Virus record (IMG/VR): IMGVR_UViG_2713896776_000007
Coordinates: 1-22,230 of that record
Reading direction: 5' to 3' (one strand)
Origin: a virus
Lineage: Duplodnaviria; Heunggongvirae; Uroviricota; Caudoviricetes
Length of the DNA stretch: 22,230 nt
In this document: positions 1 through 17,809 of the stretch, piece by piece
Position numbering within the stretch: position 1 is the first letter of the stretch
Layout: each line of letters starts with the position of its first letter
Position numbers and translations under genes: made by a program
The notes under the pieces: generated by a model
What the model was told of the DNA's origin: nothing
What the model saw: only the letters and a program-made list of their open reading frames with translations
Database searches by the model: none

Positions 1-270
1 ATGGAAAATCTACTTTTTGTGATGTGTTGGATTAAAGATCATCATGTGATGTCATTAGCTTTTGGCGTCTTATCTGCAATTTTATGGATTAAATCTGCTA
101 CAGCAAAAGTTGAGTTAGGCAAAAAAATTGTCATGGTTACGTATGAAGATCCCGAACTTAACGTGAATCTCCATGATTTCTTCGCCACTGCGCGGCTTCA
201 ATCTAAGTACAATTCATTTGCAGCATTGTCTGCAGCAGCAACCGCGCTATTCCAGATTATTGGTTTGTAA
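1..270 (+). CDS. hypothetical small hydrophobic protein (89 aa); ORF begins at the window edge and may be 5-prime partial
   Basis: Open frame from nt 1 to TAA at 268-270. Two hydrophobic stretches (VMSLAFGVLSAILWI and FAALSAAATALFQIIGL). AT-rich, convergent with the cargo operon. No RBS can be assessed at the window start. Confidence 0.3.
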   Translation: MENLLFVMCWIKDHHVMSLAFGVLSAILWIKSATAKVELGKKIVMVTYEDPELNVNLHDFFATARLQSKYNSFAALSAAATALFQIIGL

Positions 271-407
271 TGCTTACCAGCCCCAAATTAATCAATACCC
301 AGTGGTATTAGCAATGTCCATTTCAAGTACATACGTTCTTAAGACATTTGGGCACTGTCATGTCTGTCGGGGAGGAGGTTAAAATCCTCTCGTGCAAAAT
401 TTCTTAG

Positions 408-770
408 CTAGAGAATACAAAGAACATCATCTGGTGTTAACACAGAGTCTTCTACGTACTCAGGGTGGTTACGTAATACATCTCTCTGATGTCTCAAGAT
501 CTGCGCTGGAATTTCTTGCTCATCCACAATTTTGGCAGTATCCAGCAAAATACTGCCACACCTTATTTCCAGCGAAACAAAGCGATTCCACTCTGGACCA
601 TTAGAACACAAAAGGTCAAACAAAACCTCACCTGTAGCCTGTGAATTGCCCAGTATAACAGAAAGCCTCTTCTCGATTTCGTGAACTGAAGTCAAGGGGT
701 TCTCGTAGCCAGTCGCCATAACGACGGCAATGAGAGCCCCTGAGACGTTAACACCTGTTATTTCAAACAA
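408..770 (-). CDS. rnlB: RnlB/LsoB-like antitoxin candidate (120 aa), second gene of the cargo operon
   Basis: TTG start at 770 preceded by AAGGA about 8 nt upstream. The 8-nt overlap TTGTTTGA contains the TGA stop of the upstream gene, so the two are translationally coupled. Size and position match the RnlA-RnlB arrangement (toxin first, about 120-aa antitoxin second). Assignment rests on architecture only. Confidence 0.45.
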   Translation of the reverse strand: MFEITGVNVSGALIAVVMATGYENPLTSVHEIEKRLSVILGNSQATGEVLFDLLCSNGPEWNRFVSLEIRCGSILLDTAKIVDEQEIPAQILRHQRDVLRNHPEYVEDSVLTPDDVLCIL

Positions 771-1833
771 TATACAAATCCTTAATAATTCCCCATGCCT
801 GTCTGGCCTTAGTCATCAGTCGTGCCATGTCAGAAACCATACGGCTTGTGTCGACAACTATCTCCATATGAAACAGGCCATGACGTTCTCTGTTAAAGAA
901 AGTATAGGCATCATTAATGGTCTTAACCTTAGCTGACGATAAATTGCATCCAAATTGTTGTTTCAGAATAAATTCACTCCCAATTTTATCAAAATAAGGC
1001 CCGAAACCATCCTGCGTGATTGGCATGCCATATCGGTACATTGTTGATTTAAGTACTCCCTCAACTGAACGTAATTCAGGATACAACAACATACAGTAAT
1101 CGGGTAAATCGGGGGCGGCGAGTTTAACACACAGCCCAGAAACGAGCAATTTTTCAACATTCTTATGCAATAGTGGGTACGCATCCCCCATTTCACACTC
1201 TAGATGTGAGCGAGCAACTTCTTTCTGAACTATATACGCTTTGCCATCATCCTGACGAATGAGAACTTTTTCCAGTCCTTGTAAATCGAGTAGCTCTGAC
1301 AAGTTGAATATAAACACTCTATAACATGACAATGGACGCCCTTGTATTTGTAGTGTTCCATTTCTGTGATGCAGACTAACTGTCAACTCATCCTGAAATT
1401 CTGGCGAATGAATTTTCCACACCGTTGTATGAGTGTTCCGTAAGTATTCGTAAAATTGTATATGTGGCTGCTCTGCTGAGAGCTGAAGTACAGATAAAAC
1501 GTTCGCTTCAACGAACCCTTGTAACACCATATTTACCTGTTCAAATTCTGCAGGATTGATGGTTTCATAGAGATCATCAGCCAACTCTTTTCCAAGATTA
1601 TGATTAGCTCCTGTTTGATACTGGACTGTAGACGTCCCTCCGTTATTATAGAAAATGTTAACAGTTGCCAAAGCTTCTCCTGGTTTAGCAAACACAACCC
1701 GAAGTCCTGCTCTTGCACCAGGCATTGGTCCAATTGAATGGACGGAATAGTTTTTATTTTCAATAAATGCCCTAGACGTAGCCTCAATAGTTGTCCGATC
1801 TAAATTTAAATTAGTGTAGTTCCTGACTGTCAT
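763..1833 (-). CDS. rnlA: RnlA/LsoA-like HEPN endoribonuclease toxin candidate (356 aa from ATG at 1833; the ORF stays open up to 1944)
   Basis: C-terminal Rx4-6H HEPN-type motif NRERHGLFH. Counting from the ATG at 1833, R255 and E258 (LRSVEG) and R317/H322 fall at or within one residue of the catalytic positions I recall for E. coli RnlA (R255, E258, R318, H323; 357 aa). Followed by an overlapping gene of about 120 aa. AT-rich. Not verified by alignment. Confidence 0.55.
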   Translation of the reverse strand: MTVRNYTNLNLDRTTIEATSRAFIENKNYSVHSIGPMPGARAGLRVVFAKPGEALATVNIFYNNGGTSTVQYQTGANHNLGKELADDLYETINPAEFEQVNMVLQGFVEANVLSVLQLSAEQPHIQFYEYLRNTHTTVWKIHSPEFQDELTVSLHHRNGTLQIQGRPLSCYRVFIFNLSELLDLQGLEKVLIRQDDGKAYIVQKEVARSHLECEMGDAYPLLHKNVEKLLVSGLCVKLAAPDLPDYCMLLYPELRSVEGVLKSTMYRYGMPITQDGFGPYFDKIGSEFILKQQFGCNLSSAKVKTINDAYTFFNRERHGLFHMEIVVDTSRMVSDMARLMTKARQAWGIIKDLYIV

Positions 1834-1842
1834 TTGCTTAAC

Positions 1843-1871
1843 CCTATAAAAAACTTTAGCAAACTCTACAA
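1843..1871 (-). promoter_or_regulatory. candidate sigma70 promoter for the cargo operon
   Basis: On the minus strand, TTGTAG then 17 nt then TATAGG, ending about 9 nt before the ATG at 1833 (short leader). Hexamers are imperfect. Confidence 0.25.
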
Positions 1872-1892
1872 TATAGCCCCTCTTTAGTCTAA

Positions 1893-2255
1893 TCAGGCGC
1901 TGTATCCTGAAATCGGGTACCGATAATATCCCTCCTGCAGCCATGTGTTGGTGTTAACAAGATACTGTGTATCAATTGAATCCGTCAGATTGCAAAAGTT
2001 GATGCCTCTTTCGCGCAGTTCCTCCACCAGCACGACAAGATGCCGCATACTGCGCCTCAGTCGATCCAGTTTCCAGACCACCAGCGTATCACCTGCCGAT
2101 AATGTCCTGAGCAGTTTTTTCAGTCCCGGCCTTTCGGACTTTGTACCGCTTATCTTGTCTTCAAAAATCAGCTCGCATCCTGCACAGTTCAGCGCATTAC
2201 GTTGTAGATCTGTGTTCTGGTCATTTGTTGACACACGTACATAGCCAATAAGCAT
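1893..2255 (-). pseudogene. pin: Pin/Gin/Hin-family serine DNA invertase, 3-prime truncated (N-terminal catalytic domain only)
   Basis: MLIGYVRVSTNDQNTDLQRNALNCAGCELIFEDKISGTKSERPGLKKLLRTLSAGDTLVVWKLDRLRRSMRHLVVLVEELRERGINFCNLTDSIDT is near-identical in pattern to the Gin/Pin N-terminus, including the catalytic Ser in YVRVSTNDQ. Homology ends after SIDT (about nt 1968); the remaining 24 codons are unrelated and the C-terminal DNA-binding domain is absent. Confidence 0.8.
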
Positions 2256-2281
2256 GGTAGATCTCCCTGACAAAAGCAGGA

Positions 2282-2815
2282 ATGATGCCATTTGCGCGTT
2301 ATTTCTGCATTTTCATAAACGTTGGTTTGGGAGAAGGCTCTGCATTACCGGTTGGGGTGCCTGTTCCGTGGCCTTCAGCCACTCCGCCAACAGGCTGGCT
2401 GAAATGCAATGGTGCGGCTTTTTCTGCTGAAGAATACCCGGAACTGGCAAAGGCTTACCCGACCAATAAATTGCCTGATTTACGCGGTGAATTTATTCGT
2501 GGCTGGGATGACGGACGTGGAGTGGATAACGGAAGGGGATTATTAACGCTTCAGGACGGTGCGATTGTCAGTCATAACCACTATTGGGGAATCTGGACTT
2601 CACGAACTAACGACCAGACTCTGGAAAGTTTTACAGGCACCACGATTTTAAAACAAATCACGCCCCTGTCTCCGGCCATTGACTTCGATAATTACCCAAT
2701 TCCCAACCCGGCTATTACAGAGGGTGGTGTTGTTGCGGCAACGACTAAACCTGCTGGTGCGAATGAAACACGCCCACGAAATGTCGCTTTTAACTATATT
2801 GTGAGGGCTGCATAA
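2282..2815 (+). CDS. alternative (currently silent) tail-fibre C-terminal variable segment, Sv-prime/StfE-like
   Basis: Contains the tail-fibre receptor-binding signature GVPVPWPSATPPTGWLKCNGAAFSAEEYPELAKAYP...LPDLRGEFIRGWDDGRGVD. Lies inside the invertible segment in opposite orientation to the expressed fibre. Real coding likely starts at the crossover site (GLGE codons near 2323). Confidence 0.7.
   Translation: MMPFARYFCIFINVGLGEGSALPVGVPVPWPSATPPTGWLKCNGAAFSAEEYPELAKAYPTNKLPDLRGEFIRGWDDGRGVDNGRGLLTLQDGAIVSHNHYWGIWTSRTNDQTLESFTGTTILKQITPLSPAIDFDNYPIPNPAITEGGVVAATTKPAGANETRPRNVAFNYIVRAA
2310..2335. other. invertase crossover site (hix/gix-like), left end of invertible segment
   Basis: TTTTCATAAACGTTGGTTTGGGAGAA. 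Its right 14 bp (TTGGTTTGGGAGAA) are identical to the inverted partner at 4213..4238. Confidence 0.55.
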
Positions 2816-3417
2816 TGAATAACGCAGAATTAAACAGTGAATTAATTGCCACTATGGCAGGAGAAATTACTGTTTATAACTTTGATGTCATGAGTCGGGA
2901 ATATATTTCAGCTTCAACTGAATATCTTGCTATTGGTGTCGGCATTCCGGCATATTCCTGTTTAGATGCCCCAGGCGCATACAAAGCTGGTTATGCAATC
3001 TGCCGTTCTGCAGATTTTAACTCATGGGAATATGTGCCAGACCATCGCGGTGAAACGGTCTATAGCACCGAAACAGGAGAATCAAAAGAAATCACCGCTC
3101 CGGGTGATTACCCTGAAAATACAACCACTATCGCCCCATTAACGCCATATGATAAATGGGATGGTGAGAAATGGGTGACGGATACCGAGGCACAGCATAG
3201 CGCCGCAGTAGATGCAGCAGAAGCACAGCGCCAGTCGCTGATTGATACTGCAATGGCGTCCATCAGTCTGATTCAACTGAAATTGCGGGCCGGACGTAAA
3301 CTGACGCCGGCAGAAACAACCCGGCTTAACGCTGTGCTGGATTACATTGAGGCGGTGACGGCAACAGATACCAGCACCGCGCCGGATGTCATCTGGCCTG
3401 AACTGCCGGAGGCGTAG
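2815..3417 (+). CDS. tail fibre assembly protein (U-prime/TfaE-like), 200 aa
   Basis: Start overlaps the stop of the preceding fibre segment (ATGA coupling). C-terminal ...DTSTAPDVIWPELPEA is typical of Tfa chaperones. Confidence 0.8.
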   Translation: MNNAELNSELIATMAGEITVYNFDVMSREYISASTEYLAIGVGIPAYSCLDAPGAYKAGYAICRSADFNSWEYVPDHRGETVYSTETGESKEITAPGDYPENTTTIAPLTPYDKWDGEKWVTDTEAQHSAAVDAAEAQRQSLIDTAMASISLIQLKLRAGRKLTPAETTRLNAVLDYIEAVTATDTSTAPDVIWPELPEA

Positions 3418-3841
3418 GCCATTCAATATCTGGTGCACTGGAGGTATCAACCAGCTCCAGTGCATCCAGATAATCCAGCCACAAATTATATTGCGCCAGT
3501 TCCTCACCTTTCAGACGACCAATAGCGGCTTTACCGGGCCATTGCTTACTGTTCATGTATTCGTTGGCCTGGTTAATTAGTAGCTGTCTTTCTGATTCAG
3601 TAATTTCAATAAGCTCTTCATGCGTGGGTGGAGGAATATCTGCCCACGCAGGCAGCCCATCATCTCCGGCAATACGGATTTTTCCTTGTGGCGGTTCAGC
3701 CATAAACTCACTGATAATATTCTGATTTACTTCCTTAGCGTCTGATAAATCCCATCCCTCTGATTTATATTTATCAATCATATCCACAGGAAAAAAAGCA
3801 TTATGCCTTGCGCTATAAACATATTCGTTCATATAAATCAC
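3389..3841 (-). CDS. tail fibre assembly protein (U/TfaP-like), about 147-150 aa
   Basis: MNEYVYSARHNAFFP N-terminus and DTSSAPDIEWPTPP C-terminus are typical of Tfa. The 3-prime end overlaps the convergent Tfa gene. True start may be the internal ATG at 3832. Confidence 0.8.
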   Translation of the reverse strand: MIYMNEYVYSARHNAFFPVDMIDKYKSEGWDLSDAKEVNQNIISEFMAEPPQGKIRIAGDDGLPAWADIPPPTHEELIEITESERQLLINQANEYMNSKQWPGKAAIGRLKGEELAQYNLWLDYLDALELVDTSSAPDIEWPTPPAVQAR

Positions 3842-3852
3842 CCTGAATAAAA

Positions 3853-4515
3853 TTACTCACCAACAGCCCACCAACTGTAATTCATCGATACCGTGTCGCT
3901 GGTTGATGACGTTCTGTAAGCAGAATTAAAACCGGTTAACGTTGGGTCTTCTGCCGTCATCACGAACCCTCGCCCAGCGCCTAAAGGCGCACCGCCATCA
4001 CCAGAATGAGTAAGCATGGCGCAGTCCGCTTTTTTGGGGAAAGGGATGCTGAATGTAATTCTCATTGTTTGCGTCGATAATGTCGGCGTAACCGCACCTC
4101 GACCATATTGCAGGATTTTACCGTTGGGTAATTTCATCCATCCATCACCACTGGCAAAAGAAGCCATGTCCGGTATCTGATTTTCCCCTGTCCCCACATC
4201 CCGTTTTGCCGCTTCTCCCAAACCAAGGTTTTCGAGAGCCGTTTTCACCGTGCCGTCCGATTTGATATCGCCAAACGGATTCTTGCGGCTTAACAGCAGC
4301 GCGCGAAGTGCGGTAAGCAACTGGTCATGCCTCCCCTTCTCCAGGCTGGTACCGGATGCCTCCACCACGCTGCAAAGCTCCTCCTGCAACATGTCAAAGT
4401 AGTCATCATCCAGATCGGTGGCAGGTGTGCCGGTCTGGGGGTTACCACGGGTAAAACCGTTCTTACCCGCGCCGAACTTATCCTTCTGCGCGGTTTTCGT
4501 GTCTATACGATGCAT
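3853..4515 (-). CDS. tail fibre protein (expressed orientation), StfP-like, 220 aa
   Basis: N-terminal [14 protein letters not shown] resembles the conserved fibre N-terminal attachment motif. The crossover site lies within the gene at the GLGE codons. Immediately downstream of the gp48-like gene. Confidence 0.75.
4213..4238. other. invertase crossover site (hix/gix-like), right end of invertible segment, inside the expressed fibre gene
   Basis: Plus strand TTCTCCCAAACCAAGGTTTTCGAGAG closely resembles Hin hixL as I recall it (TTCTTGAAAACCAAGGTTTTTGATAA). Inverted relative to 2310..2335. Confidence 0.55.
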
Positions 4516-4518
4516 GGA

Positions 4519-5103
4519 TTACTCCGGATATTTAAAAATTACGTAGGTATGCGACGGGCAGAGTTTGTTAAGCACACACTCGACTACGGTGTCGCCCCAG
4601 ATACGCAGTGCGGAATCACAGGGATCGCCACATGTCATCCAGGTGGTGTTGGTGGCGGCTGGCATGTTGACCTGCCAGTAATACCGCCATTCCGGCGCAT
4701 TCACCGCGTCAGTACAGGCAGATGAGCAGGTGAACGTGCTTTTGTCGTATCGCGTGATGGTGGCGTCTGGTCTGCCCAGGGCAGCAAGCTGTGCAAGGTA
4801 AAAATCCTCATTGATGCCGCCCGCCAGATTAACCTTCGCATCCAGCCGTTGCTGACGCTGGCGAAGGGTCTGCGTCCCTGCCGGAATACATTCATCCGGC
4901 AGGCCGCACAGACGCTCCCAGCGATTTATCAGTTCGGTGGTGGTGCGCGGATCCAGCTCCCGCATCAGGGCATCCGCACGCTGATGAACACGGGTTAATG
5001 AAGGTGCCGCACCGGCAATCGCCGGATCGCTGGCTGACCACGCCGGACCGGGCGGCAACAGTGCCGATAACAGGCGGATGTAATCATCGTTTGTCACGTC
5101 CAT
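4519..5103 (-). CDS. baseplate/tail protein, YmfQ / Mu gp48-like (DUF2313-type), 194 aa
   Basis: Same length as e14 YmfQ (194 aa) and same position between the baseplate J-like gene and the tail fibre. Confidence 0.65.
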
Positions 5104-6152
5104 GAAATCGTCCCCAGTACCGCCAGTTCGTTTTTCGCAATGGAAATATTGTCTGCCGGTGCAAGCAACTGATGGCTGTATTCCCCGTTCGCACCGGAAA
5201 TCGCCTCACTGATACGCGATACCTTCAGTTCTCCCTGCGGATAACCATCACGCAGCAGGAACGAACGCAACTCCGCGGTAATGGCAGCCCGTATTTCCGG
5301 TGTGTCCGGCGTCACGCGGATATGAAAATCCACCGTATGCGCCACCGGCCTGAACACATACAAATCAGAGCCTGCCACCGGGGCCAGAGGCCCGATATGT
5401 TGTCTTGCCGCCGTTTCCGTTGATTCTTCCGGAATGGGATTAATCAGGTCACTGCTGGCAATCATCACACCGACAGTTCCCGTTCCCATCCAGTGACGGT
5501 ATGTCCATGCGCGGGTAATGCCGGGCACTTCTTTAGCCCAGACGACATAGTCCCCGTCAGCCCCGCCCTGAAGCGTCCAGTAATACCGCTCAATGACGCG
5601 GGCGCGCCACGTTTCCAGATCTTCAGTATCGAATCCGCCAGTCAGGGTATCTGCAACACCGGAAGACGGCAGACCATTCACCGGCGTGACCAGGATTAAT
5701 GCCGTACCGTCGTCAGCGTTACCGACCGCGCCTGCACTTGAGCAAGTGATCGGCACGCGCAGGACACCACCGGAGCTGGTTGCATCAGCAGTTGCCGTGT
5801 ACTGAACCAGGTCAGCGCGCTGAATCACGCTCCCGGCGGTCACCTTCAGGCCATCGCTGACACCTTCCCAGCGCATATACCCGCTGGCAGCCGTGGCCCC
5901 CTTGCGCGGACACCGTTTCATCGCAGCATGTCGCGCCAGCCAGGACTCATCGCACAGGTCAGGCAGCATGTTCATTGCCAGATAATCGATGTAACCGTAA
6001 ACCGTATGCAGCGCCGCCGCATACACCTTTGCCCGCACGTCTTCATCCATGCGCCGGAGCGTGTCGCTGACGTCCAGCCTGGCGAATAAATCGTTACGGA
6101 GCATACTGATATTTTCTGCCAGCGTCGGGCGCTGAAATTCACTGTCCGCCAT
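5094..6152 (-). CDS. baseplate J-like protein (Mu gp47-like), 352 aa
   Basis: Size and position in the baseplate operon; overlaps neighbours by 10-14 nt (translational coupling). Confidence 0.65.
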
Positions 6153-6567
6153 GCGTTATCGCACTCCACAGATCATCAAAAGAAATCATTACCGGTCCGT
6201 CACGACGCCAGAGGGTGATACTGTTACCCAGCTCATTAATCCCGGTGCGGCGGATATCCAGATCAATACGGGACACCACGCCGTCATCAATCATCCATTG
6301 CAGGCATTCGCGGATATACCCCCTTACCGTCTGCACCAGCTGATTGGTCAGTTTGCTGCGCTGAAGCAGCCACAGTCGGGAGCCGTAACGGTCATTCTGT
6401 ACCGCAGGCCAGGTATCCCCCCACCATCCCATCGGGACGTCGGCGTTGTCATCAGGCTCCGCCCGCCGCCAGGTAAACATGGAAATCACCACGGCGCGGG
6501 TCAGCGGATCCAGCGGTGCGCTGGCGCAGGTGCGTTTACCGTTCACCGTCAGCCACAGTTCCATCAT
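6139..6567 (-). CDS. baseplate protein, Mu gp46 / GP46-family (lysozyme-like gp25 type), 142 aa
   Basis: Motifs GWWGD and GSRLWLL are as I recall for the GP46 family. 4-nt overlap with the upstream V-like gene. Confidence 0.6.
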   Translation of the reverse strand: MMELWLTVNGKRTCASAPLDPLTRAVVISMFTWRRAEPDDNADVPMGWWGDTWPAVQNDRYGSRLWLLQRSKLTNQLVQTVRGYIRECLQWMIDDGVVSRIDLDIRRTGINELGNSITLWRRDGPVMISFDDLWSAITHGGQ

Positions 6568-7112
6568 GCCTCCATCGCTTTATCAGGTTTGTCGGTGTTA
6601 CTGCCCTGACCGTTCTCTCTGTGACGATGCCCGTTATAGGCAAGCCGCATCGCTGACATGGTAGTGCCGCCGGAGTCGCACAGGTCTTTCACCTGTCCGG
6701 TCACTTCAAGGTCCATTTCAAAACGTGCTCTGGGCGCATTGCGAAACGTGATCGTTTTACCTGCACCGTCCACCACGATCCCCTCCCGGGTCAGCGTCAC
6801 AGACTGCCCCTGATCGTCATAGACAGCCACCTCACCCGTCTGCAGCCCTTTCAGGCGGTAGCGCCGGTCCGACACCGTAACAACCACCGCATGAGAACGG
6901 TCGCCATCCGGAAACAACACCACCGCTTCCGCACCGCTGTTTGCCCTTGCGGTAAAACCGTAGGGTTCAAGATGTTCAACCCCGGCTTTGGGTTCACCGG
7001 CAATCAGGGACACATCCACGGTCTGACATTTCGTGGCGGCGCTGATACTTTTCACCACTGCCCGCCCAATCAGGCCGAGAAGTTGTCGCTGCATGGCTTC
7101 AATCGTCCTCAT
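6564..7112 (-). CDS. baseplate assembly protein V (Mu gp45-like), 182 aa
   Basis: LEPYGFTA...GAEAVVLFPDGDRSHAVVV...RYRLKGLQTGEVAVYDD matches the gpV family signature. Confidence 0.7.
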   Translation of the reverse strand: MRTIEAMQRQLLGLIGRAVVKSISAATKCQTVDVSLIAGEPKAGVEHLEPYGFTARANSGAEAVVLFPDGDRSHAVVVTVSDRRYRLKGLQTGEVAVYDDQGQSVTLTREGIVVDGAGKTITFRNAPRARFEMDLEVTGQVKDLCDSGGTTMSAMRLAYNGHRHRENGQGSNTDKPDKAMEA

Positions 7113-8191
7113 CAGAACGGGTCCTCCTGTACTCTGGCTTTTTTCTTTTTCTGCGCGCCGGGGGCATCGGGTTCAGGCAGATAAGCATCAGGCGGGCCGA
7201 CACGGATTTCCGTCAGGGTGCCGTTCTGGTCCTGAGTAAACGTGACTTCCGAAACAAGCAGTTCGGTATTGTCAAAACCACAGACCGGATCAAAGACAAT
7301 CACCCGCTGGTTGGGCTGCCACAGCGTACCGTTACCCTGTCGCCAGCCCTGCACCACATAGGTGGTTTCATCCGTCCGCGCCGCCCGTTGCCGGGCTTCA
7401 AAGTCAGCACGCGCAATACAGCCAGCCCCCGTGGCCTGCCCTGTCTGCCTGATATACATCGGACGGTAACGGGCAATAAATGCGTCCTCTGTGCGGGCCC
7501 GCAGCGCGGTGGTGGTGGCCTCACCGAAATCATCGTCGTTTCCGGCACGCTGCCCCGCCACCTGGTAAACTGAAAACCGCTCCCGGATACTCTTCTCCGT
7601 ATCGCAGGAAAGGATGTTTTCCCCAAGTACCAGCGCGGTATGTGCCCGCGTTGAGCCAATACCGCCAATCACCAGCCTGCCGTGCGGATCGTCGTAAGCC
7701 AGTGCCTGCTGCTGACCGAGTATTTTGTTGATTACCTCAATCACCGTTTCACCGTGATCAGGCTGAACATCAGGAATAACACCCGACGGCGCACCGCTGT
7801 TCACCACCTCAATGCCGAAAGGCGCAGCAAGCGCCTGCGCAATCTGCACCAGCGAGCGTCCGTTAAACTGTGTCGGTTCGGCTGCACAGTCAATCAGGTC
7901 AGCCGTCAGACTACGTCCGGCAATACCGGTGCTGACCGAACGGGCATCGTAACGAACGGGCGTCGCCTCCACCCAGCCGGTGATCACCAGCTCATCACCA
8001 ATCAGCACCTCCACTTTTGAACCGTTTTTAATGCGCGGCTGAAGCGTGGTGATACCCTCATCACCCGGCCACTGGCGGGTGATCTCCACACTGAAATCCC
8101 GCGCCAGCCGTTCAATACCGGCACCGATGCGCACCGATGTCCAGCCATTCCACTCCCGGCCATTTACCCGTAGCGTGACATTGTCGTTCAT
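7112..8191 (-). CDS. tail/baseplate hub protein (Mu P / gp44-like), 359 aa
   Basis: Position between the DNA-circulation-like gene and the V-like gene; overlapping start and stop with both neighbours. Confidence 0.55.
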   Translation of the reverse strand: MNDNVTLRVNGREWNGWTSVRIGAGIERLARDFSVEITRQWPGDEGITTLQPRIKNGSKVEVLIGDELVITGWVEATPVRYDARSVSTGIAGRSLTADLIDCAAEPTQFNGRSLVQIAQALAAPFGIEVVNSGAPSGVIPDVQPDHGETVIEVINKILGQQQALAYDDPHGRLVIGGIGSTRAHTALVLGENILSCDTEKSIRERFSVYQVAGQRAGNDDDFGEATTTALRARTEDAFIARYRPMYIRQTGQATGAGCIARADFEARQRAARTDETTYVVQGWRQGNGTLWQPNQRVIVFDPVCGFDNTELLVSEVTFTQDQNGTLTEIRVGPPDAYLPEPDAPGAQKKKKARVQEDPF

Positions 8192-9564
8192 TGCACTGGC
8201 ACCTTCAGAGGGATCACCGGCACAAAGCCGGGATGCGTAATGGCATTACGCCGGATAATGTCCGCGTCACGCGCCGCGTTATCAAACCAGGTCGCCGCCA
8301 GCACCAGCGCGGGTAAAACCTCATCCGGTGTGCGCTGAATGATCCGAGCAGACTGTTCAAGGCGCGTGTTGATATCCGCATTCAGATCTGCTTTCACCCG
8401 GCGCAGCGCCAGAAACAGCGCATCACTGGTTGTACGGGACAACTCCTTATCAATTGCCGTATTCAGTGTGTCGCGAATGTCGGTCAGTTCTTCCCACGTT
8501 GGCAGGTCAACCGTGTTTTTCACCGCCGGTGCATTGTTCAGTGCCGGATGCGTGACGGAAGGCCAGCCGGAGCTCTGCGCGGGTGTTGTTGACTGCCCCA
8601 CTGCGGCATTCTGCATCACCGCAGAAGTTGTTGGCGCAGGCAATCGGGTGACGGCATACGCCGCTTCGCTGATTGCGGTCGTACGAAGGATGCTGGCAAC
8701 CACGTTACGCTGCTGCGTCGCCGTGGCGGTGGTTTTACTGTCCGTTTTCCAGACGCCGCGCGGTTGCAGATCGCTGCCGAGGCTGACACCGGAAAGCGTT
8801 TTGATCATGGTGACCAGGTCGCTGGCGTTACCATAAAGGCGTTTCCCGGTACGCCACATTTTCTGCACCTGCTCAACGAAATTTTTTCCTGACGATGGCG
8901 GCGGCAGAAGTACCGAGATATCCCCCTGCAACAGCCTGGCAGCATCCGATACGGCAGAATCCACCACTTTCATCGCATCAGAAACATACCCCAGCATTGT
9001 GCTGGCATTACCGACGACGTCGTTCTGCACAAAATCCGCCACGCCATCGATACTGAAACCACTGAAACTGTCACTGATGCAGTCATCCAGTGCAGAACAG
9101 GATGACATCAGCGTCTGCGCCGTCGCCGCACCTGATGTGGGGTAAGAGAGTTCTCCCGCTTCGACAAACTTCAGGTCAAAGCGGACAATACGCCCTTCAC
9201 TTTTCGATGTGCTGACCCGAACTTCCCCGTCAACACAGACTTTCAGCTCACCGTATGTCGGATGGACAAGCGTGCCGGGACCGGGTTTATTCAGCGCATC
9301 AATCAGGCGATCGCGCTGGTCAAAGCAGTCATCTCCCACCACATAAGCCGTGATGGACGGGCGGAAAGTAACTTTTCCCAGATCTTCGGTATAGGGCTTG
9401 TCGCGGTTCGGGTATTCGTGTGTTTCCACACGGCGACCGGTTCCCGCACTTTCTTCTTCAACCTTAAACGATACGCCGCGAAATGACGCGTCCTGAAGTC
9501 TGTCACGCCAGCCTGAAGACGACGAAAGTAATGAAGGTCGGGTGGGAAATGAGGATAAATCCAT
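8188..9564 (-). CDS. tail protein of the Mu N / DNA circulation family (gp43-like), 458 aa
   Basis: N-terminal WRDRLQDASFRGVSFKVEEE...GRRVETHEYPNRDKPYTEDLG is characteristic of the DNA-circulation N-terminal domain. Directly downstream of the tape measure. Confidence 0.7.
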   Translation of the reverse strand: MDLSSFPTRPSLLSSSSGWRDRLQDASFRGVSFKVEEESAGTGRRVETHEYPNRDKPYTEDLGKVTFRPSITAYVVGDDCFDQRDRLIDALNKPGPGTLVHPTYGELKVCVDGEVRVSTSKSEGRIVRFDLKFVEAGELSYPTSGAATAQTLMSSCSALDDCISDSFSGFSIDGVADFVQNDVVGNASTMLGYVSDAMKVVDSAVSDAARLLQGDISVLLPPPSSGKNFVEQVQKMWRTGKRLYGNASDLVTMIKTLSGVSLGSDLQPRGVWKTDSKTTATATQQRNVVASILRTTAISEAAYAVTRLPAPTTSAVMQNAAVGQSTTPAQSSGWPSVTHPALNNAPAVKNTVDLPTWEELTDIRDTLNTAIDKELSRTTSDALFLALRRVKADLNADINTRLEQSARIIQRTPDEVLPALVLAATWFDNAARDADIIRRNAITHPGFVPVIPLKVPVQ

Positions 9565-9588
9565 AGACTGACCTCAAAAAGGACTGCG

Positions 9589-11496
9589 TTATCGTGGAAA
9601 ACGAAAAGGGGAATACCCCACATCGTGCGTGATTTTCATCAGGGGATCGGCTTTGTCCGGTACATCAATTATCTTCATACCTGGCGGAGCATTCTCGAAC
9701 GTGACTTTCAGCTCGCTGTGCTGTGTCATGGAAGAAGATGGATTCAACAGCGGAACATTGGGTTTGTACTGACTCAGGCTGGCCTGATATTGCTCGTACT
9801 CTTTACGATCAAAAAAAGGCGTCCAGTCTGAAGCCAGAAACAGCCCTTTATTATCCAGCCAGTTAACCGTATCTTCAGGAACAACACTTTCCAGAGTATC
9901 TTTAACCGGCTCATACATCAGGGTTCCCAGAAAACCATATACCCCGGCCTTCCCGATAAAGCCGCGGCCTTTCCCCATCAATCCCGTTTCTGCCGATACC
10001 TTCCCCAGCGTACGCATCTCTCTGGTCACTGCGGTAATGGATTTGGTAACGTCAGCAACCCATTTGGTTGCCATAAACAGGGCAATCGCTTTCAGAACAG
10101 TTTCCCATCCCCCCATCGCCTGCGCCGTTTCATCCATCACGTGCCAGACTTTTTTTATGACAGGACCTACGGTTTCCCAGTTATCAATAATGAGGTAAGC
10201 GCCACCAACCAGAAGAGCAATCAGCCCCTTAGCAGGCGTCATATTCATCACACCGCCGAGAACTTTCATAATTCTGGACAAAGAGCCTGCAGCGGCTCCC
10301 ACCGTCAGTAAGGCCAGACCGATTTTAGCAATGGTCTTAACGAGCTCCGGGTTTTCACGGACAAACGTTCTCACTTCCTCAAGGAGCGGTTTTACCGCTT
10401 CAAGACCATCATTAACCTCAGGAAGAAACGTTTCCCCCAGCGTGGAAGAAATGGCATCAAGTTGATTTTGCAGAAGTAAAAGCTGGTTTTCCGTCGTCGC
10501 TGCCCTCGAAGCATATTCCTTCTGCATCGAACTGCCATACTGCTGGGAATCCGCAACCCGCCTGAAGTTGGTACGCAACAAATCAAGGTTAGTCAGCAGA
10601 GGTGCTATCGCGCCCAGAGACTCTTTCCCGAACAGGGCATTCAGCACAGCTGCCCGTTTTTCTTTAGGCACTTTAGCCATCGCATCCAGTACAGATAGCA
10701 TGGTGCCCCGGGCATCTTTCTGCATATCAGCAGCTAATTTCTTCGGATTGATCCGCAGAAAACGCAATGCCTGTTTCTGCGATTTTGTCGCAGAATTTCC
10801 CGCGGTCAGGGAAAGCATGAAGTTCTTGATCCCTGTGGCGGCAATTTCTGACTCCACGCCCATCCCGGCAATGGTTGCCCCCATTGCCGCGATTTCGCCG
10901 GAAGCCACACCTGCAACACCACCTAAAGGACCAATACGCGTAACAATATCGGAGATTTTCTTCGCGTTCGCCGGGCCGGTATTACCAAGGTAGTTGATTT
11001 TGTCAGCCAGCCCGGCCACTTCATCCTGCGTCATATTAAACGCAGTACGCCACTGGGCCATCATCTGCCCGGACTCTTCAGCCGTGGTATCAAAGGCCAC
11101 GCCCATCTTCACCGCATCAGTGGCAAACTGCATCAGTTCATCACGTGCAATCCCGGCCTGACCACCCGCCGCCACGATTTCAGCGATACCTTCCGCCGAC
11201 ATAGGCAGTTCGGTTGACAGGTCACGCACCTGCTCCGTCATGGCCTTAAACGCATCCGGCGTATCCAGACCGTCCACCACTTTGCGGACATCAGCCATCT
11301 TCGATTCAAGGGTGATGGCTGATTTTACAGGGAGTACCAGTGCCCCCATTATTGCAGTACCCGCCCCGGCAGCGCCCAGAGCAAGGCTGGAGACTTCTTT
11401 CTGAAATCCCTTAAGCTGACGCTGCATACCTTTAAGCGGGCCGGATAGCCTGTCAACGGCGGTGATGATGGCTTTCAGCTGAAAATTATCAGCCAT
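9589..11496 (-). CDS. tail tape measure protein (canonical position, Mu gp42-like), 635 aa
   Basis: Helical, Ala/Gly-rich with the tape-measure core (IAEIVAAGGQAGIARDELMQFATDAVKMGVAFD...INYLGNTGP) and a hydrophobic GGAYLIIDNW segment. Lies between the chaperone-like gene and the N-like gene. Confidence 0.8.
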   Translation of the reverse strand: MADNFQLKAIITAVDRLSGPLKGMQRQLKGFQKEVSSLALGAAGAGTAIMGALVLPVKSAITLESKMADVRKVVDGLDTPDAFKAMTEQVRDLSTELPMSAEGIAEIVAAGGQAGIARDELMQFATDAVKMGVAFDTTAEESGQMMAQWRTAFNMTQDEVAGLADKINYLGNTGPANAKKISDIVTRIGPLGGVAGVASGEIAAMGATIAGMGVESEIAATGIKNFMLSLTAGNSATKSQKQALRFLRINPKKLAADMQKDARGTMLSVLDAMAKVPKEKRAAVLNALFGKESLGAIAPLLTNLDLLRTNFRRVADSQQYGSSMQKEYASRAATTENQLLLLQNQLDAISSTLGETFLPEVNDGLEAVKPLLEEVRTFVRENPELVKTIAKIGLALLTVGAAAGSLSRIMKVLGGVMNMTPAKGLIALLVGGAYLIIDNWETVGPVIKKVWHVMDETAQAMGGWETVLKAIALFMATKWVADVTKSITAVTREMRTLGKVSAETGLMGKGRGFIGKAGVYGFLGTLMYEPVKDTLESVVPEDTVNWLDNKGLFLASDWTPFFDRKEYEQYQASLSQYKPNVPLLNPSSSMTQHSELKVTFENAPPGMKIIDVPDKADPLMKITHDVGYSPFRFPR

Positions 11497-11580
11497 GCTT
11501 CATCTCCTCATTTATACGGACGGCCTCTGCCTCCAGATCAGCAAAGTGGGAAATAGCCGTCCGGCGAAGTTCAAGGGGGT

Positions 11581-11904
11581 TTAATTTCCAGAACCACGCG
11601 ACATTGTAGAATCGCTTCCGGAGGTCTCTTCCGTCTCCAAGCCGGTAAAAAAACGCATTACAATCATGCCTGCCTTGAAAATATCCAGCTTCGTCATCTG
11701 CGCTGCAGACGAGCGCGGGATCCCGGCCAGAAGCGGGATATATTTCAGCGCCACCTGACTGTCCATTTTCATACCACCATCAGGCGAAACAGAGAAAGGG
11801 AACCCCAGCGCCTCAATCTCGTCATACGTAGGCTCACGTATTTCCAGCACATGCAGTGTTTCTTTGTGGGCGATGATCGGTTTTTTAAGTACAAGCTCAA
11901 TCAC
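11581..11904 (-). CDS. tail assembly chaperone candidate (Mu gp41-like), 107 aa
   Basis: Small acidic protein between tube and tape measure. No frameshift extension of 60 aa or more is visible in the ORF track. Confidence 0.45.
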   Translation of the reverse strand: MIELVLKKPIIAHKETLHVLEIREPTYDEIEALGFPFSVSPDGGMKMDSQVALKYIPLLAGIPRSSAAQMTKLDIFKAGMIVMRFFTGLETEETSGSDSTMSRGSGN

Positions 11905-12257
11905 TGGTAATCCCCTTCTTCACCGTGGAACTCAAGATCGACCGTGCCTTCTTCGGCATTATGGTTCGCTTCGCCGTGCAGCCAGGCAGACGACAGTACA
12001 TAGACCTGACCGTTCGCCAGCTCGGCAGTGATGGTCATCTCATCAGACGAGGTGATTTTGCTCACCGGAAAATTCTTCGGCACCTTGAAGGTCCCTTTGA
12101 CATAAGGCGCACGGTGAGTTTCCTTGCGGTCCACTGAACCGTCCAGGCCGATGATGTCATCATTGACCGTCCTGTTCATGGGCACCTCAATGCCGCCGGT
12201 CAGCGATAGCTGCTGACCGTCAATTTTGAAATAACAGGTTCCCCCGATACGGGCCAT
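11901..12257 (-). CDS. tail tube protein (Mu M-like), 118 aa
   Basis: Directly follows the sheath gene with overlapping start and stop; size typical of a Mu-type tube. Confidence 0.65.
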   Translation of the reverse strand: MARIGGTCYFKIDGQQLSLTGGIEVPMNRTVNDDIIGLDGSVDRKETHRAPYVKGTFKVPKNFPVSKITSSDEMTITAELANGQVYVLSSAWLHGEANHNAEEGTVDLEFHGEEGDYQ

Positions 12258-13753
12258 TATGCGGACTCCTCTGAATACTGAAGACGGAACTGGTTAACCA
12301 CGGCAAAGACACGCAACTGGTTAACATAGTCAGGCGGGAACAGCGTGTTCAGGCGGTTCGGATCGCTGGCATCACGCTCCACAACTAGGTACTGCTTAAA
12401 CAGTGCGTAGTTTTCCACGATCCCCGCACGCTCAAGCTGACGGTAGGTTGCCAGCAGTTCCCCTTTGATCACCGCCGGGGTGACAATCGCCTGACCGGGA
12501 CCAAAGCGGGTACCGTCACTGGCAAGCTTGTGACGCCCGTACTTACTGGTAATGACGGATTTCAGTTTGCGCAGTACATACGCGCTGGTATGCAGGGTCT
12601 CACTGTCTAGGTAGCTGTTATCCGCAACCCCGTAAGCGTTTTTCCTGTACGTGGTGACATCACGCTGAATGCGCAGTACCCCGCTTTCGACATACGCCGT
12701 TGCCACGCCATGAGACAGCAGGGTCTGTTGTTCGGTCATCGTGAACCGTTTCCCCTTCGGCGCAGGCAGCATACCCACCAGCTCACCGGTCTGCGTGGGA
12801 CGTGCCGGATCGTTGCGAATAAACACCGCTGCGCGGGCGGTACGGCTTGCCGCCAGTTCGTCGGCAGGCGTCTGGGTCTCTTTTTCGTACCCCGCCAGGG
12901 TAATGTGCTGCTGGTTAAACTGGTCACCTGCGGTCACCAGTTCTGACAGCGTGCCGATCTTTGCCGTATACACATGACCATACAGCTGACGCGCATAGCT
13001 CCAGCGACCGCTGGTATCGTTCATCTCGGTCACCAGCGTGTTAACGGAGGCCGTGTCGTTGAACGGCAGGCCGATATAATCAAACGGCTCATCCGCCATT
13101 GCAGCCACCGCGCCGGTGAGAACCGGAGCACCCGTTCCGGCGGTACCCGTCGCCACGGCAATCTGTACGCCCGCTGGCAGCACTTCGCCCCCACCAAAGC
13201 CGTAGTAATTGAGGCTGACAGGAATTTCATTCCCGCAAAGCCCCTTATGACGCGCGGTCAGTGTGACCACGCCTGCCGAAGATGAAGCCGTAAACGGCAG
13301 GGCCGGAACGGCATTGATGGCATCTTTGATACTGCTGGCAATCGTCGTGACGTTATCGCCGTTGGTCACCGGAGCCTGCACGCGGGTACGTCCCACATAG
13401 ACATTCACCGTGCCGGTTTCGGTTGCCGCCCCGGTCACCGTCAGCGTAACCGTTGCCGCCGCGCCTGTGGATTCAGGAACGGCAATCACATACAGCTCAC
13501 CAAACGGGTCGGTCTGGCGATAAGCCTCGACCATACGCGCCAGCTGACTTCCCGCACCACAAATCTGGCGTGCATAGTCTGCCGACGGCATCAGTACCAG
13601 ACTGTTGGCAACAATCTCTGCACCGTTATTGGCATGACCAATCAGCAGCGATGCTCCGCTGTCCTGTGCAGTATTCGCCGCCGAGTTATCCATTTCCGCA
13701 TAAAACAACGGAACCAGCGTATTCGACGGAATGGTGTTAAAGCTTATCGTCAT
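12257..13753 (-). CDS. contractile tail sheath protein (Mu L-like), 498 aa
   Basis: Size and position, followed by tube, chaperone and tape measure. Confidence 0.75.
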   Translation of the reverse strand: MTISFNTIPSNTLVPLFYAEMDNSAANTAQDSGASLLIGHANNGAEIVANSLVLMPSADYARQICGAGSQLARMVEAYRQTDPFGELYVIAVPESTGAAATVTLTVTGAATETGTVNVYVGRTRVQAPVTNGDNVTTIASSIKDAINAVPALPFTASSSAGVVTLTARHKGLCGNEIPVSLNYYGFGGGEVLPAGVQIAVATGTAGTGAPVLTGAVAAMADEPFDYIGLPFNDTASVNTLVTEMNDTSGRWSYARQLYGHVYTAKIGTLSELVTAGDQFNQQHITLAGYEKETQTPADELAASRTARAAVFIRNDPARPTQTGELVGMLPAPKGKRFTMTEQQTLLSHGVATAYVESGVLRIQRDVTTYRKNAYGVADNSYLDSETLHTSAYVLRKLKSVITSKYGRHKLASDGTRFGPGQAIVTPAVIKGELLATYRQLERAGIVENYALFKQYLVVERDASDPNRLNTLFPPDYVNQLRVFAVVNQFRLQYSEESA

Positions 13754-13915
13754 CGGTATTCACCTTTTTATTCACGCGCCGGATATCACCCGCTGCTTCA
13801 CGGCGCAGCCAGTAGTTGTTCTCGTCAACATTTCGCCCTTCGGCGGGCAAAAGGTCGCCGCGGGCAGGGTCAGGAACTGACCGCCCTTTAACAGGTTTCA
13901 CAAACATGAAGATTC

Positions 13916-14476
13916 TCAGGAAGGAAGGGTTATTTCGGTGTGATGTTCGATATCGCCGTCAGGCCCGTTACCGGGATCGAGATAATCAACATCAATCGCC
14001 AGCGTTCGCAGTTCATCCAGACTGTTCAGGTCATCCTGCTGGCGGGTATCGTCTTCAGTCAGCTCGCTGATGACCGAAAAATCGAACTGATAAATCAGCT
14101 CATGACGATTCAGATCCAGCAGCGTGCCGCCGTCATAGGTAATCGGGTTACCGCACGCCTCCGGGTTCCAGCCCAGCAGAGCCTTAAAGAGCATCTGCCG
14201 GACATCGTCCACCACATCATACGAGGCAAACTGACCGCGCTCATCACGCCCGTTACTCAGTATGACAACCACGGAGAAACCCTCTTTCAGCTCCTGCCAG
14301 TAGTCGGTCTGGCTTTTGTTTTCTCCCGGAGAATCATCACCCGGTACAACATATGCCGCCGGGAGTTTCAGCTTTCCGACCTCCGGCAGATTTTTGAACT
14401 GGGCCGCGCCTGCAACCCGGTTTTCAAAATACGGACAGCGGGCACGCAGTGCAGCAATAACAGGCGTCAGTTTCAT
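13916..14476 (-). CDS. tail completion / neck protein candidate (Mu gp37-like), 186 aa
   Basis: Position immediately upstream of the sheath gene; acidic C-terminus. Assignment is positional. Confidence 0.4.
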   Translation of the reverse strand: MKLTPVIAALRARCPYFENRVAGAAQFKNLPEVGKLKLPAAYVVPGDDSPGENKSQTDYWQELKEGFSVVVILSNGRDERGQFASYDVVDDVRQMLFKALLGWNPEACGNPITYDGGTLLDLNRHELIYQFDFSVISELTEDDTRQQDDLNSLDELRTLAIDVDYLDPGNGPDGDIEHHTEITLPS

Positions 14477-14704
14477 CTGTGTCGTCGCTCCGGCTTCAGT
14501 GATTTACGCAATTCCCGCGCCAGAAAATAGCGTGTCCAGCTGCGGTTCTTTTCAAGAGTTTCCACCATGAAGTTATTACGTGGAGCCAGTCGCCAGCCGC
14601 TGCCACCGGATGCACCTGATCCACCGCGCGATAAATAAGCCGCAATCCGTGAGATAAATGGACACGGTGCGGCTTTTCAGATACTGCAAAGGAATTACAA
14701 ATTA

Positions 14705-17182
14705 TCAGTCGTAAGCAACCCGGCGCTTACGGGCAAGAATAGCTTCCAGCGCTCTTTCAATCTCAGGAATGGACAGCTTAAGCGCATTCGCTACATCCGG
14801 TGCTGGTGACTTGTTCTTGCCATCAATATAGATATGGTTAATGACGTTAATCCCTGCACCTGCCGGTGAATGTGAATCCCGGCCTCTGGATAAGGTAAGG
14901 TCGCCGCGCATATAGCGCTCTAATACGGGTGGTACTTTCGGTACATCCGGCACCATCATATCAGCCAGCCGCGAGGAGGCTTTTAGCGCCAGCGATGCAG
15001 ACTGACCGATACCAATCGCCGCCCCTTCTGCGATGTTTGAACCGAAGCCCATAAAGACCCGGCTTGGCGAGTGAATCCCCAGCTTTTCCTTGAACCACCC
15101 GCCGACGCTATCGCCCATCTCGGTAACGGTATTCTTGAGCGACTCCCACTTATTTTTGATACCGTTCACCAGTCCGTCAATCAGGTGACCGCCAAACTCG
15201 GTAAACTGGCCGGGAAGGTCGATGTTAAACCACTTCATGACCCCCGCAAACGCCTTGTAGAACAGCCCCAGCGGCGACCAGTTCAGGATTAGCTTACTGA
15301 CGCCGAGAACGCCGCCGTTAAAGGCCGTTTTGACTTCCTCCCATCGCTGTGAGAACCATCGACTTATTGCCCCCCAGTTGCGGTATATCAGGTATGCGCC
15401 CCCGGCGATGACGGTTATCGCAATGCCTAAGGGATTCATCATCAGCGCCCGGCCAAACCAGAGAAATGCTTTTGCAACGACCATGACGCCCCTGAACAGC
15501 CCACCTGCCAGCGCTTTACCCAGCGTCCCGGCTCCCTTCGCTACGGTACTGAATCCAGTAGCCAGCCAGCGCAACCTGCCACCAACACCAAGGGCGGCTT
15601 TCAGCTTCACCCAATGAGTGTGTACCAGAACAGCGTTTTTCCACATCCCAACAAAAGGTGAAAAAAGCAGATTAAGGCCGAGCTTCAGACCGACAGTGGC
15701 AATTTTCAGCCCCAGCAGTGCGCCCACGGTTTTTGCCACACCCTGAACAAGCGTCGGATGTTGCTCTATCCAGAGCTTCGTTGTCTGAATCATCGGGATT
15801 AATTGCCGGGTTGCTGACACAAATGTAGGGGACAACTGATCGCCGAGAGAGATAGATAAATCACGGGTGTTTATCATCAGGGCTTTGGTTGCTTCCAGCG
15901 GCGATTTGAGCCTTTCAGCATAGGATGCCGCCAGCAGGTCATTATCAGCCGCTTTAAGTGCACCAGAGCGGATTGCCCTGTATTTATCCATGTTAGCAAG
16001 CATAGGGCGAACGAACGCCATTACCTGCATATCGGTGAACATCTCACCCAGCCCAAAGTTTTTAGCCAGACTTTGTAAGGCCTCGTCCCGCGCTTTGTTG
16101 TCCTGAATTTGCATTGCGGATTTAAAACCAGCCAGAGCTTTCGGACTCGTTGCATTAAGGTATCTTTGGGTTACATCCAGCATACCTTCAATGGGGGAAA
16201 CTCCGGCTGCTTTATAATTCGCAAGAGACCCCATCAGGTCGATACCTAAATCGGCAAATCGCTTCTGCGTATCAGGCGCAAAAATCTTGGTGAGGAAGTT
16301 CCTGAAATTGTTTGCAGTCTCATCCGGTGAACCTGAACCAATCATAGCGACCTGCAAACTGGCCCCAATCTCCGCCACTGCATCCTTACCGTCTGCAATA
16401 CCCTGCATCATCGGCGCAAGCGACTGAATCCATTTCACCTGGTCAGGGATTTCAAAAGACCCCTGGTCACCTGCGTAGGCCATGATGTTCTGTACCGCGC
16501 CAAATTCTTTTGCGCTGCCTTTCAGCGAGTTTTGCCACACCGCCGCAACCTTTGCCCATTCCGTTCCTGCGGTACGGGTTGCCGTGGCTGCACGGGCGAT
16601 ATTCGGCATGTAGTTGCCAATATCTGAAAGCCCGTCAATGTTATCGCTGATAAGTGAACCAACGGCGTCCTGCATATCGCTCTGATACTGGTTGTATTTG
16701 AGCGACCACCCTTTGATTTGCTCTCCCAGAGTCTTACGGGTTTTATCGTCATATTTCGCTGTGATTGACATATCAATCATTTTATCTTCAAACGATGCCG
16801 ACTGTTCTATAGCCGGGGACACAAGACTGTAAGCAGCCCTGACTTGTGCATACGCCTCTACTCCCTGACCGTAGAGCGCCATGCGGTTAGATTTCAGGGC
16901 GTCAGAAGTGGCAGACGCTGCCGACAGGCGGGACTGCTGGCGGTTAAGCTGTTCCAGCGTTCTGCCGACCCGTTGCAGGTCATTGTTCAGGCGCGAGGCT
17001 ACGCCCGAACCAACCTGACCGTAACGCTGCATGGCGCGTGACAGGCTGCTTTGCTGCTCCGTCAGTCGGCGTGAGGTGTCGCCGAGAGAATCCAGAGTAC
17101 GCCGGGTACTGCTCATCGCGGAACGAAAACTGCTCCCGACAATGCCGCCAATCATCACGCCAACAGAAAAATTATTGCTCAT
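14705..17182 (-). CDS. second tape-measure-like protein, 825 aa (paralog of the 635-aa tape measure)
   Basis: Coiled-coil N-terminus, tape-measure core, Gly/hydrophobic segments including GGAYLIYRNW (compare GGAYLIIDNW in the 635-aa protein), and a C-terminal GIHSPSRVF motif as in lambda-H-type tape measures. Confidence 0.6.
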   Translation of the reverse strand: MSNNFSVGVMIGGIVGSSFRSAMSSTRRTLDSLGDTSRRLTEQQSSLSRAMQRYGQVGSGVASRLNNDLQRVGRTLEQLNRQQSRLSAASATSDALKSNRMALYGQGVEAYAQVRAAYSLVSPAIEQSASFEDKMIDMSITAKYDDKTRKTLGEQIKGWSLKYNQYQSDMQDAVGSLISDNIDGLSDIGNYMPNIARAATATRTAGTEWAKVAAVWQNSLKGSAKEFGAVQNIMAYAGDQGSFEIPDQVKWIQSLAPMMQGIADGKDAVAEIGASLQVAMIGSGSPDETANNFRNFLTKIFAPDTQKRFADLGIDLMGSLANYKAAGVSPIEGMLDVTQRYLNATSPKALAGFKSAMQIQDNKARDEALQSLAKNFGLGEMFTDMQVMAFVRPMLANMDKYRAIRSGALKAADNDLLAASYAERLKSPLEATKALMINTRDLSISLGDQLSPTFVSATRQLIPMIQTTKLWIEQHPTLVQGVAKTVGALLGLKIATVGLKLGLNLLFSPFVGMWKNAVLVHTHWVKLKAALGVGGRLRWLATGFSTVAKGAGTLGKALAGGLFRGVMVVAKAFLWFGRALMMNPLGIAITVIAGGAYLIYRNWGAISRWFSQRWEEVKTAFNGGVLGVSKLILNWSPLGLFYKAFAGVMKWFNIDLPGQFTEFGGHLIDGLVNGIKNKWESLKNTVTEMGDSVGGWFKEKLGIHSPSRVFMGFGSNIAEGAAIGIGQSASLALKASSRLADMMVPDVPKVPPVLERYMRGDLTLSRGRDSHSPAGAGINVINHIYIDGKNKSPAPDVANALKLSIPEIERALEAILARKRRVAYD

Positions 17183-17808: not shown

Positions 17809-17809
17809 T

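Follow-up and report, generated by a model that had tools for sequence, protein, structure and literature searches.

What does the AT-rich end of a virus record encode when it adjoins a broken invertase gene, and could it serve as a defense cassette? We examined this question in positions 1 to 22,230 of the IMG/VR record IMGVR_UViG_2713896776_000007 (Caudoviricetes); this whole stretch is called the window below. The G+C content was 40.9% over nt 1 to 1968 and 52.0% over nt 1969 to 22230, and a recount gave exactly the numbers obtained by hand in an earlier, sequence-only reading of this DNA (19 G+C of 60 in nt 1 to 60 and 40 of 60 in nt 8101 to 8160). The two minus-strand genes announced by that reading were found in the AT-rich part, at 763 to 1833 and 408 to 770. 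They very probably constitute a genuine, probably functional RnlA-RnlB type II toxin-antitoxin and abortive-infection module, a diverged second Escherichia coli allele of the system carried by the cryptic prophage CP4-57 of strain K-12. Both genes are intact. The cassette occupies the outermost end of a prophage, where it is joined to a broken pin gene. The features concerned are the following.

763 to 1833, minus strand: rnlA allele, encoding a 356-amino-acid HEPN endoribonuclease toxin with TBP1/NTD, TBP2/NRD, and HEPN/DBD domains (Pfam, structure match, and alignment with K-12)
408 to 770, minus strand: rnlB allele, encoding a 120-amino-acid antitoxin, with a TTG start (Pfam, structure match, and alignment with K-12)
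1834 to 1893, minus strand: 5' leader of rnlA, presumed promoter/operator region (DNA homology to K-12)
1963 to 1968, strand not assigned: junction between the AT-rich cassette and the truncated invertase gene (end of the pinE homology)
1968 to 2255, minus strand: truncated pin-type serine invertase gene, given as context and lying outside the module

The two genes encode an RnlA toxin and an RnlB antitoxin

The 356-amino-acid protein scored above the curated Pfam cutoffs for RnlA_toxin_N (PF19417, residues 6 to 86), RnlA_toxin (PF15935, residues 98 to 183), RnlA-toxin_DBD (PF19034, residues 203 to 324), and HEPN_RnaseLS (PF18869, residues 234 to 336). According to these matches, it has the three-domain architecture of RnlA, with TBP1/NTD, TBP2/NRD, and a C-terminal HEPN/DBD. 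The solved structures of K-12 RnlA (6y2p_A, 4i8o_A, and 6Y2R/S) were matched over residues 1 to 356, with E values of 1e-165 to 1e-167. For comparison with K-12 MG1655, the rnlA and rnlB genes were taken from CP4-57. In BLASTP, 255 of 357 positions (71%) were identical between the two RnlA proteins over their full length, with a single gap. The 120-amino-acid protein was likewise above the cutoff for its family, RnlB_antitoxin (PF15933; E value, 3.5e-24); it matched the PDB chain 6y2p_C with an E value of 4e-51 and shared 82 of 119 residues (69%) with K-12 RnlB in BLASTP.

Four residues of K-12 RnlA, R255, E258, R318, and H323, are each essential, as found by alanine substitution (PMC8266594). 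They align with R255, E258, R317, and H322 of the window protein, within ELRSVEG ... RERHGLFH. The catalytic residues had therefore been given correctly in the sequence-only reading, and the Rx4-6H motif RERHGLFH that it had pointed out in the larger protein lies at residues 315 to 322. V206 and D245, used in K-12 RnlA as probes of the switch from the resting to the canonical dimer (PMC8266594), are both kept in the alignment. The longest mechanically derived open reading frame (ORF) of rnlA reaches ATG 1944 and would give 393 amino acids. We rejected this start because the additional upstream codons overlap the pin remnant and K-12 homology is found only from ATG 1833 onward. The RefSeq annotation of the RnlA family toxin also begins at ATG 1833, with the same coordinates.

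The layout of the genes is that of K-12, with the toxin gene first, the gene of the RnlB-family antitoxin directly downstream, and the two genes overlapping. The minus-strand sequence across the rnlA/rnlB junction is AAGGATTTGTATATTGTTTGA. The claimed overlap of 8 nt was located there, within AAGGATTTGTATA-TTGTTTGA, with the TGA stop of rnlA inside TTGTTTGA; the TTG start of rnlB is indeed preceded by an AAGGA Shine-Dalgarno sequence, 8 nt ahead of it. K-12 rnlAB has the identical TTGTTTGA overlap of 8 nt and a TTG start for rnlB, and the sizes given for the K-12 proteins, 357 amino acids for RnlA and 123 for RnlB, were accurate. The assignment to the RnlAB family is thus borne out by Pfam, the structures, the identity with K-12, the catalytic residues, and the gene layout.

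The allele is old, unevenly diverged from that of K-12, and intact in most carriers

The coding regions were about 71 to 74% identical to the K-12 allele at the DNA level. By the method of Nei and Gojobori, the ratio of nonsynonymous to synonymous substitution rates (dN/dS) relative to K-12 was 0.10 (rnlA) and 0.21 (rnlB), the synonymous sites being nearly saturated. Such values indicate that both genes have been kept by purifying selection since the lineages split, and, judged from their DNA identity of only about 72%, the window and K-12 alleles are old lineages. The identity between the two RnlA proteins was uneven along the chain. It reached 100% at residues 231 to 250 and 85 to 95% at residues 81 to 110 and 161 to 200, and it dropped to 55 to 65% at residues 111 to 160 (TBP2) and to 35 to 55% at residues 261 to 320, between the catalytic motifs of the HEPN/Dmd-binding domain.

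A megablast search of 5,426 complete E. coli genomes detected the window allele, with at least 99% identity, in 73 of them (about 1.3%), always on the chromosome. Both genes were full length in 71 of these 73 genomes, and insertion sequence (IS) insertions struck the flanks. With the more sensitive blastn, 363 further genomes were found to carry a K-12-type allele, at about 73% identity. The exact proteins are present in NCBI as "RnlA family toxin" and "RnlB family antitoxin," the former sequence on 93 contigs and the latter on at least 1,000. The RnlAB system is already known, and the window allele is already annotated in RefSeq. The importance of the allele beyond its correct annotation is slight, RnlAB being a textbook toxin-antitoxin defense system with solved structures. 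A search of PADLOC-DB v2.0.0 gave no match for RnlA or RnlB of the window, nor for the K-12 RnlA and RnlB used as a control; because the K-12 proteins also fail there, seemingly for want of a usable model, this null result is uninformative. NCBIfam gave only subthreshold noise for both proteins, and the library seems to have no fitting model at the cutoffs used.

The conserved unit extends from a short leader to the rnlB stop

DNA homology to the CP4-57 rnlAB locus of K-12 extends upstream of the rnlA ATG by about 60 nt. Identity in this leader was 67%, and the leader (1834 to 1893) includes a block of 13 nt, TATTGTAGAGTTT, that is identical in K-12. Upstream of the leader and directly past the rnlB stop, the homology falls to background, and the flanks are unrelated. 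Since homology is confined to the interval from the leader to the rnlB stop, the transferable unit is about 1.5 kb long, roughly window 408 to 1893; this cassette has a G+C content of 41%. Only short repeats at the level expected by chance were found in window 1 to 2400, and no direct or inverted repeats flank the cassette there in a way that would mark a transposon or an integron-type cassette. Neither Rfam nor a tRNA scan gave a match in the window. We infer that the leader acts as the promoter/operator region and that the operon is expressed.

For K-12, an internal promoter of rnlB is placed within rnlA, about 280 nt upstream, as cited in PMC5535158. A counterpart could not be located in the window. 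Codons 231 to 250 of rnlA (window 1084 to 1143), whose product is 100% identical to that of K-12, are among the best-kept stretches at the DNA level, and they lie near the site reported for the K-12 promoter (PMC5535158). Selection on the HEPN dimer surface and on a promoter may both constrain these codons.

The cassette is fused to a broken pin gene and has moved between prophages

Full-length pinE of strain PapRG-04-4 and phage invertases can be aligned with the window only as far as about position 1963 to 1965, so that approximately the first 97 codons of pin remain. Alignment to full-length pinE indicated that the remnant corresponds to the N-terminal catalytic domain and that the C-terminal half, with the DNA-binding domain, is missing. 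In agreement, the Pfam Resolvase match covers only profile positions 2 to 106 of 145, and the equivalent gene is labeled in RefSeq as "recombinase family protein, missing C-terminus." The same rnlAB/broken-pin junction was present in 72 complete genomes, that is, in all but one of the carriers of the allele. Lying inside the gene, the junction looks like the scar of a deletion or of illegitimate recombination and not like a clean intergenic slot, and its presence in 72 genomes points to a single old event of this kind.

The sequence-only reading had placed the cassette in a defense-cargo slot after the invertase, naming mcrA as the gene after pinE in e14. In e14 of K-12, pinE is indeed followed by mcrA and then by the prophage end, and in the PapRG-04-4 relative a full-length pinE is followed by a GIY-YIG nuclease pseudogene. 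With McrA or a GIY-YIG pseudogene after pinE in relatives, a variable cargo position after the invertase is a sound idea. The assignment of the window cassette to such a slot is only partly right, as it is joined inside the truncated pin.

The region from about 1963 to 14616 of the window is an e14-like myovirus tail module (YmfQ, baseplate J, tape measure, sheath, and the invertible tail-fiber segment), 97 to 98.6% identical to prophages in many E. coli genomes. The same rnlAB/broken-pin junction ends a lambdoid prophage (gpJ, Lom, and tail fiber) in strain 5CRE51, and a comparison of the two contexts revealed that the pin remnant is a mosaic. Window positions 2089 to 2293 were identical to an e14-like relative, and positions 1963 to 2087 were identical, except for one mismatch, to the lambdoid-context copy of 5CRE51 (locus L001, 13968 to 14255), with a crossover near window position 2088. 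In other genomes, the shared homology stops at window 2178 to 2181 instead; the differing ends suggest several independent crossovers inside pin. The backbones next to the block include lambdoid prophages and, in the window, the e14-like tail module, and elsewhere the block stands beside a small prophage remnant. These sequence comparisons indicate that homologous recombination within the shared pin/tail-fiber region has transferred the rnlAB/broken-pin block between lambdoid and e14-like prophages. Shared tail-fiber and invertase modules can thus carry neighboring defense genes between unrelated prophages.

The block was also found close to a known attachment locus. In Ecol_732 and AHM8C212RI, the block consisting of an 89-amino-acid ORF (see below), rnlB, rnlA, and the broken pin is separated from the chromosomal ssrA by 300 nt (L010, 6338 to 8833, and L011, 6338 to 8833). 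CP4-57, the home of K-12 rnlAB, is integrated at ssrA. The presence of the window-type allele beside ssrA and of the K-12 allele in CP4-57 at ssrA ties both lineages to one attachment locus. In 5CRE51, the block is accompanied by a 25-nt stretch (L001, 11676 to 11700) that we take to be the 3' end of ssrA.

What the module would do, and what else it could be

The functional properties of this family are documented for the K-12 system only: RnlA is toxic and cleaves RNA, RnlB neutralizes it and is unstable, and RNase HI modulates both (PMC5308261, PMC8266594). By analogy with K-12, infection by a T4-like phage would shut off host transcription, so that the unstable RnlB would be lost. RnlA, stimulated by RNase HI, would then degrade mRNAs, and late phage gene expression would collapse. 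A phage would escape only with a Dmd-type antitoxin compatible with the window allele (PMC8266594, PMC5308261).

Several points weigh against a functional phage-borne defense module of this kind. The toxicity, the neutralization, the instability of RnlB, the dependence on RNase HI, and the phage phenotype are all transferred to the window allele by homology. A simple promoter scan of window 1 to 2400 detected no sigma-70 consensus in the rnlA leader, and promoter-like matches were no more common in the scanned region than in shuffled sequence. The pin junction is only about 130 nt from the rnlA ATG, so that distal regulatory sequence of K-12 may be missing. No RnlA homologue was found among 50,697 deposited phage genomes, and the label "phage-borne" consequently rests on prophage remnants only. 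Finally, the residues that differ from K-12 RnlA (about 29%) are clustered at positions 261 to 320 and 111 to 160, so that the specificity for partners or targets could differ.

One alternative, which we consider unlikely though worth weighing, accepts the module as real and gives it mainly an addiction role: it would stabilize the prophage remnant or the ssrA-linked island by postsegregational killing, with defense secondary or absent. The position of the cassette at the very edge of decaying prophages, beside attachment sites, would fit such a role, as would the link to the broken pin, kept in all but one carrier genome whatever the backbone, and the lack of an RnlA homologue in any deposited functional phage. 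However, an anti-T4 role is documented for the K-12 homologue (PMC8266594, PMC5308261), and addiction and defense are not mutually exclusive. Moreover, in Res13-Lact-PEB01-20 and AHM8C212RI, the cassette remains and most of the adjoining prophage is gone; the cassette therefore did not prevent the loss of the prophage there.

The clustered divergence of RnlA raises a further, more speculative idea, which we hold to be rather improbable. It could mark a switch of "immunity type," in which the toxin would be neutralized neither by T4 Dmd nor by K-12 RnlB, with the alleles being swapped at ssrA as alternative defense cassettes. If this were true, wild-type T-even phages that overcome the K-12 allele would be held off by the window allele. 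It is of mild interest whether the diverged HEPN surface alters sensitivity to Dmd or to the K-12 antitoxin.

Less probable still is a silent relic: the rnlA promoter would have been removed or crippled by the same deletion that broke pin, and the genes would be intact only because this happened recently. The junction 130 nt upstream of the ATG, with no consensus promoter found there, and the identity of 99% or more among all copies, which fits a recent single origin, would agree with this view. Against it, the 60-nt leader common to K-12, with its identical 13-nt block, is retained, and selection would act against a toxin gene whose antitoxin was silent. The coding region matching that of the internal rnlB promoter inside K-12 rnlA, as cited in PMC5535158, is highly conserved in the window, and read-through from the codirectional pin remnant is also possible. 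In addition, 71 of the 73 genomes keep both genes full length while IS insertions strike the flanks. An addiction-only module and a silent relic are both possible states and are less likely than an RnlAB defense module. An undescribed HEPN system that resembles RnlAB in architecture only, the fallback offered by the sequence-only reading, is refuted to near certainty by the 71% and 69% full-length identities with K-12 and by the family hidden Markov models, all matched above their cutoffs, and the null result with PADLOC does not speak for it.

Neighboring genes and other elements of the window

The sequence-only reading had described nt 1 to 1968 as a cargo operon. The rnlA/rnlB pair is present as described, but the span also holds a gene outside the operon, an 89-amino-acid ORF on the plus strand (1 to 270) that is convergent with rnlB. 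Its product has hydrophobic segments at about residues 16 to 33 and 70 to 89 and strongly matches phrog_14357 (E value, 4.6e-33), to which no function is assigned in that collection. It matched no Pfam family, and no homologue was found among the 50,697 deposited phages. A module of about 470 bp around this ORF recurs with about 90% DNA identity in Enterobacter hormaechei, in Pseudescherichia, and on a plasmid of Pseudomonas silvicola, with unrelated flanks. The 90%-identity cluster of the protein also has members in Pantoea, Serratia, Erwinia, Citrobacter, and Lonsdalea. Such a spread is unusually wide for a tiny gene lacking an assigned function. We considered the ORF as a third component of the operon and rejected this: elsewhere, the module occurs with no RnlA or RnlB nearby, and in one E. 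coli genome IS1 has destroyed the ORF, with rnlAB intact. The 89-amino-acid gene is thus a separate module, outside the operon.

On the other side of the pin remnant, a 20-nt inverted repeat, 95% complementary (AAACGTTGGTTTGGGAGAAG), was found at window 2317 to 2336 and 4212 to 4231. The two copies bracket pairs of tail-fiber and tail-fiber-assembly genes (2282 to 4515) and resemble crossover sites of the kind that bound a Pin/Gin-type invertible segment. As pin is truncated, this segment should be frozen unless another prophage supplies the invertase in trans.

Two further elements were noted around the block and in the window. A 379-amino-acid protein with no Pfam family is encoded directly to the left of the block in two genomes (L001, 10236 to 11375; L004, 11813 to 12952). 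It adjoins integrase-bearing islands with defense-like genes: one has HsdM and an ORC/CDC6 AAA ATPase, and the other has a reverse transcriptase on a P4-like satellite. The remainder of the window, 14614 to 22230, holds an 825-amino-acid tape-measure-like ORF, Mor, DUF3102, a HicB-family antitoxin (as annotated by RefSeq in the copy of strain AW1.7), and a Mu Gp27-family gene. E. coli AW1.7 carries a copy of this part with 100% identity, and there the copy splits the major capsid gene of a lambdoid prophage. In the window, the part borders directly on the tail-terminator gene of the e14-like module, at the very position where the e14-like homology stops (14616), and no complete E. coli genome had both sides of this boundary contiguous. 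A Mu-like transposable remnant that inserts into other prophages is a possible explanation of the block.

Comparison with known systems

LsoA-LsoB of plasmid pOSAK1 of E. coli O157:H7 (PDB 5HY3, LsoA with Dmd) shares the RnlA/LsoA HEPN toxin family and the toxin-antitoxin logic with the window module. T4 Dmd inhibits both LsoA and K-12 RnlA (PMC8266594). LsoA is distant from the window RnlA (5hy3_A; E value, 1e-13 over residues 65 to 333), and the homologues on small E. coli plasmids are about 21% identical to it. We therefore rejected membership in the LsoAB subfamily; the window protein belongs to the RnlA branch and is chromosomal, in the same superfamily as the other branch.

A likeness in position is offered by McrA in e14 of K-12. 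Both cargoes are of the defense type, codirectional, and situated just beyond a tail-fiber invertase gene, at the prophage end by the attachment site. In e14, however, an intact pinE is followed by a 106-nt spacer and then by mcrA, whereas the pin of the window breaks off at about codon 97, and the cassette is attached within the gene. The cargo also differs, being a restriction enzyme in e14 and a toxin-antitoxin pair in the window.

The closest system is RnlA-RnlB of K-12 (RNase LS, from the cryptic prophage CP4-57; 4I8O and 6Y2P), with the same three-domain toxin and an antitoxin of the same fold family. The two loci have in common the catalytic residues, the toxin-first order, the TTGTTTGA overlap, the TTG start, the 60-nt leader, and a similarly low G+C content. 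The window RnlA is one residue shorter than its K-12 counterpart, and the window RnlB is three residues shorter. K-12 rnlAB is embedded in CP4-57 between yfjM and yfjP, whereas the window cassette is fused to a truncated pin at the tail-fiber end of a prophage. The window thus carries a second, old E. coli RnlAB lineage, about 70% identical to that of K-12 and with its most variable surface in the Dmd-binding domain, which makes it a natural test case for the coevolution of toxin, antitoxin, and phage antitoxin.

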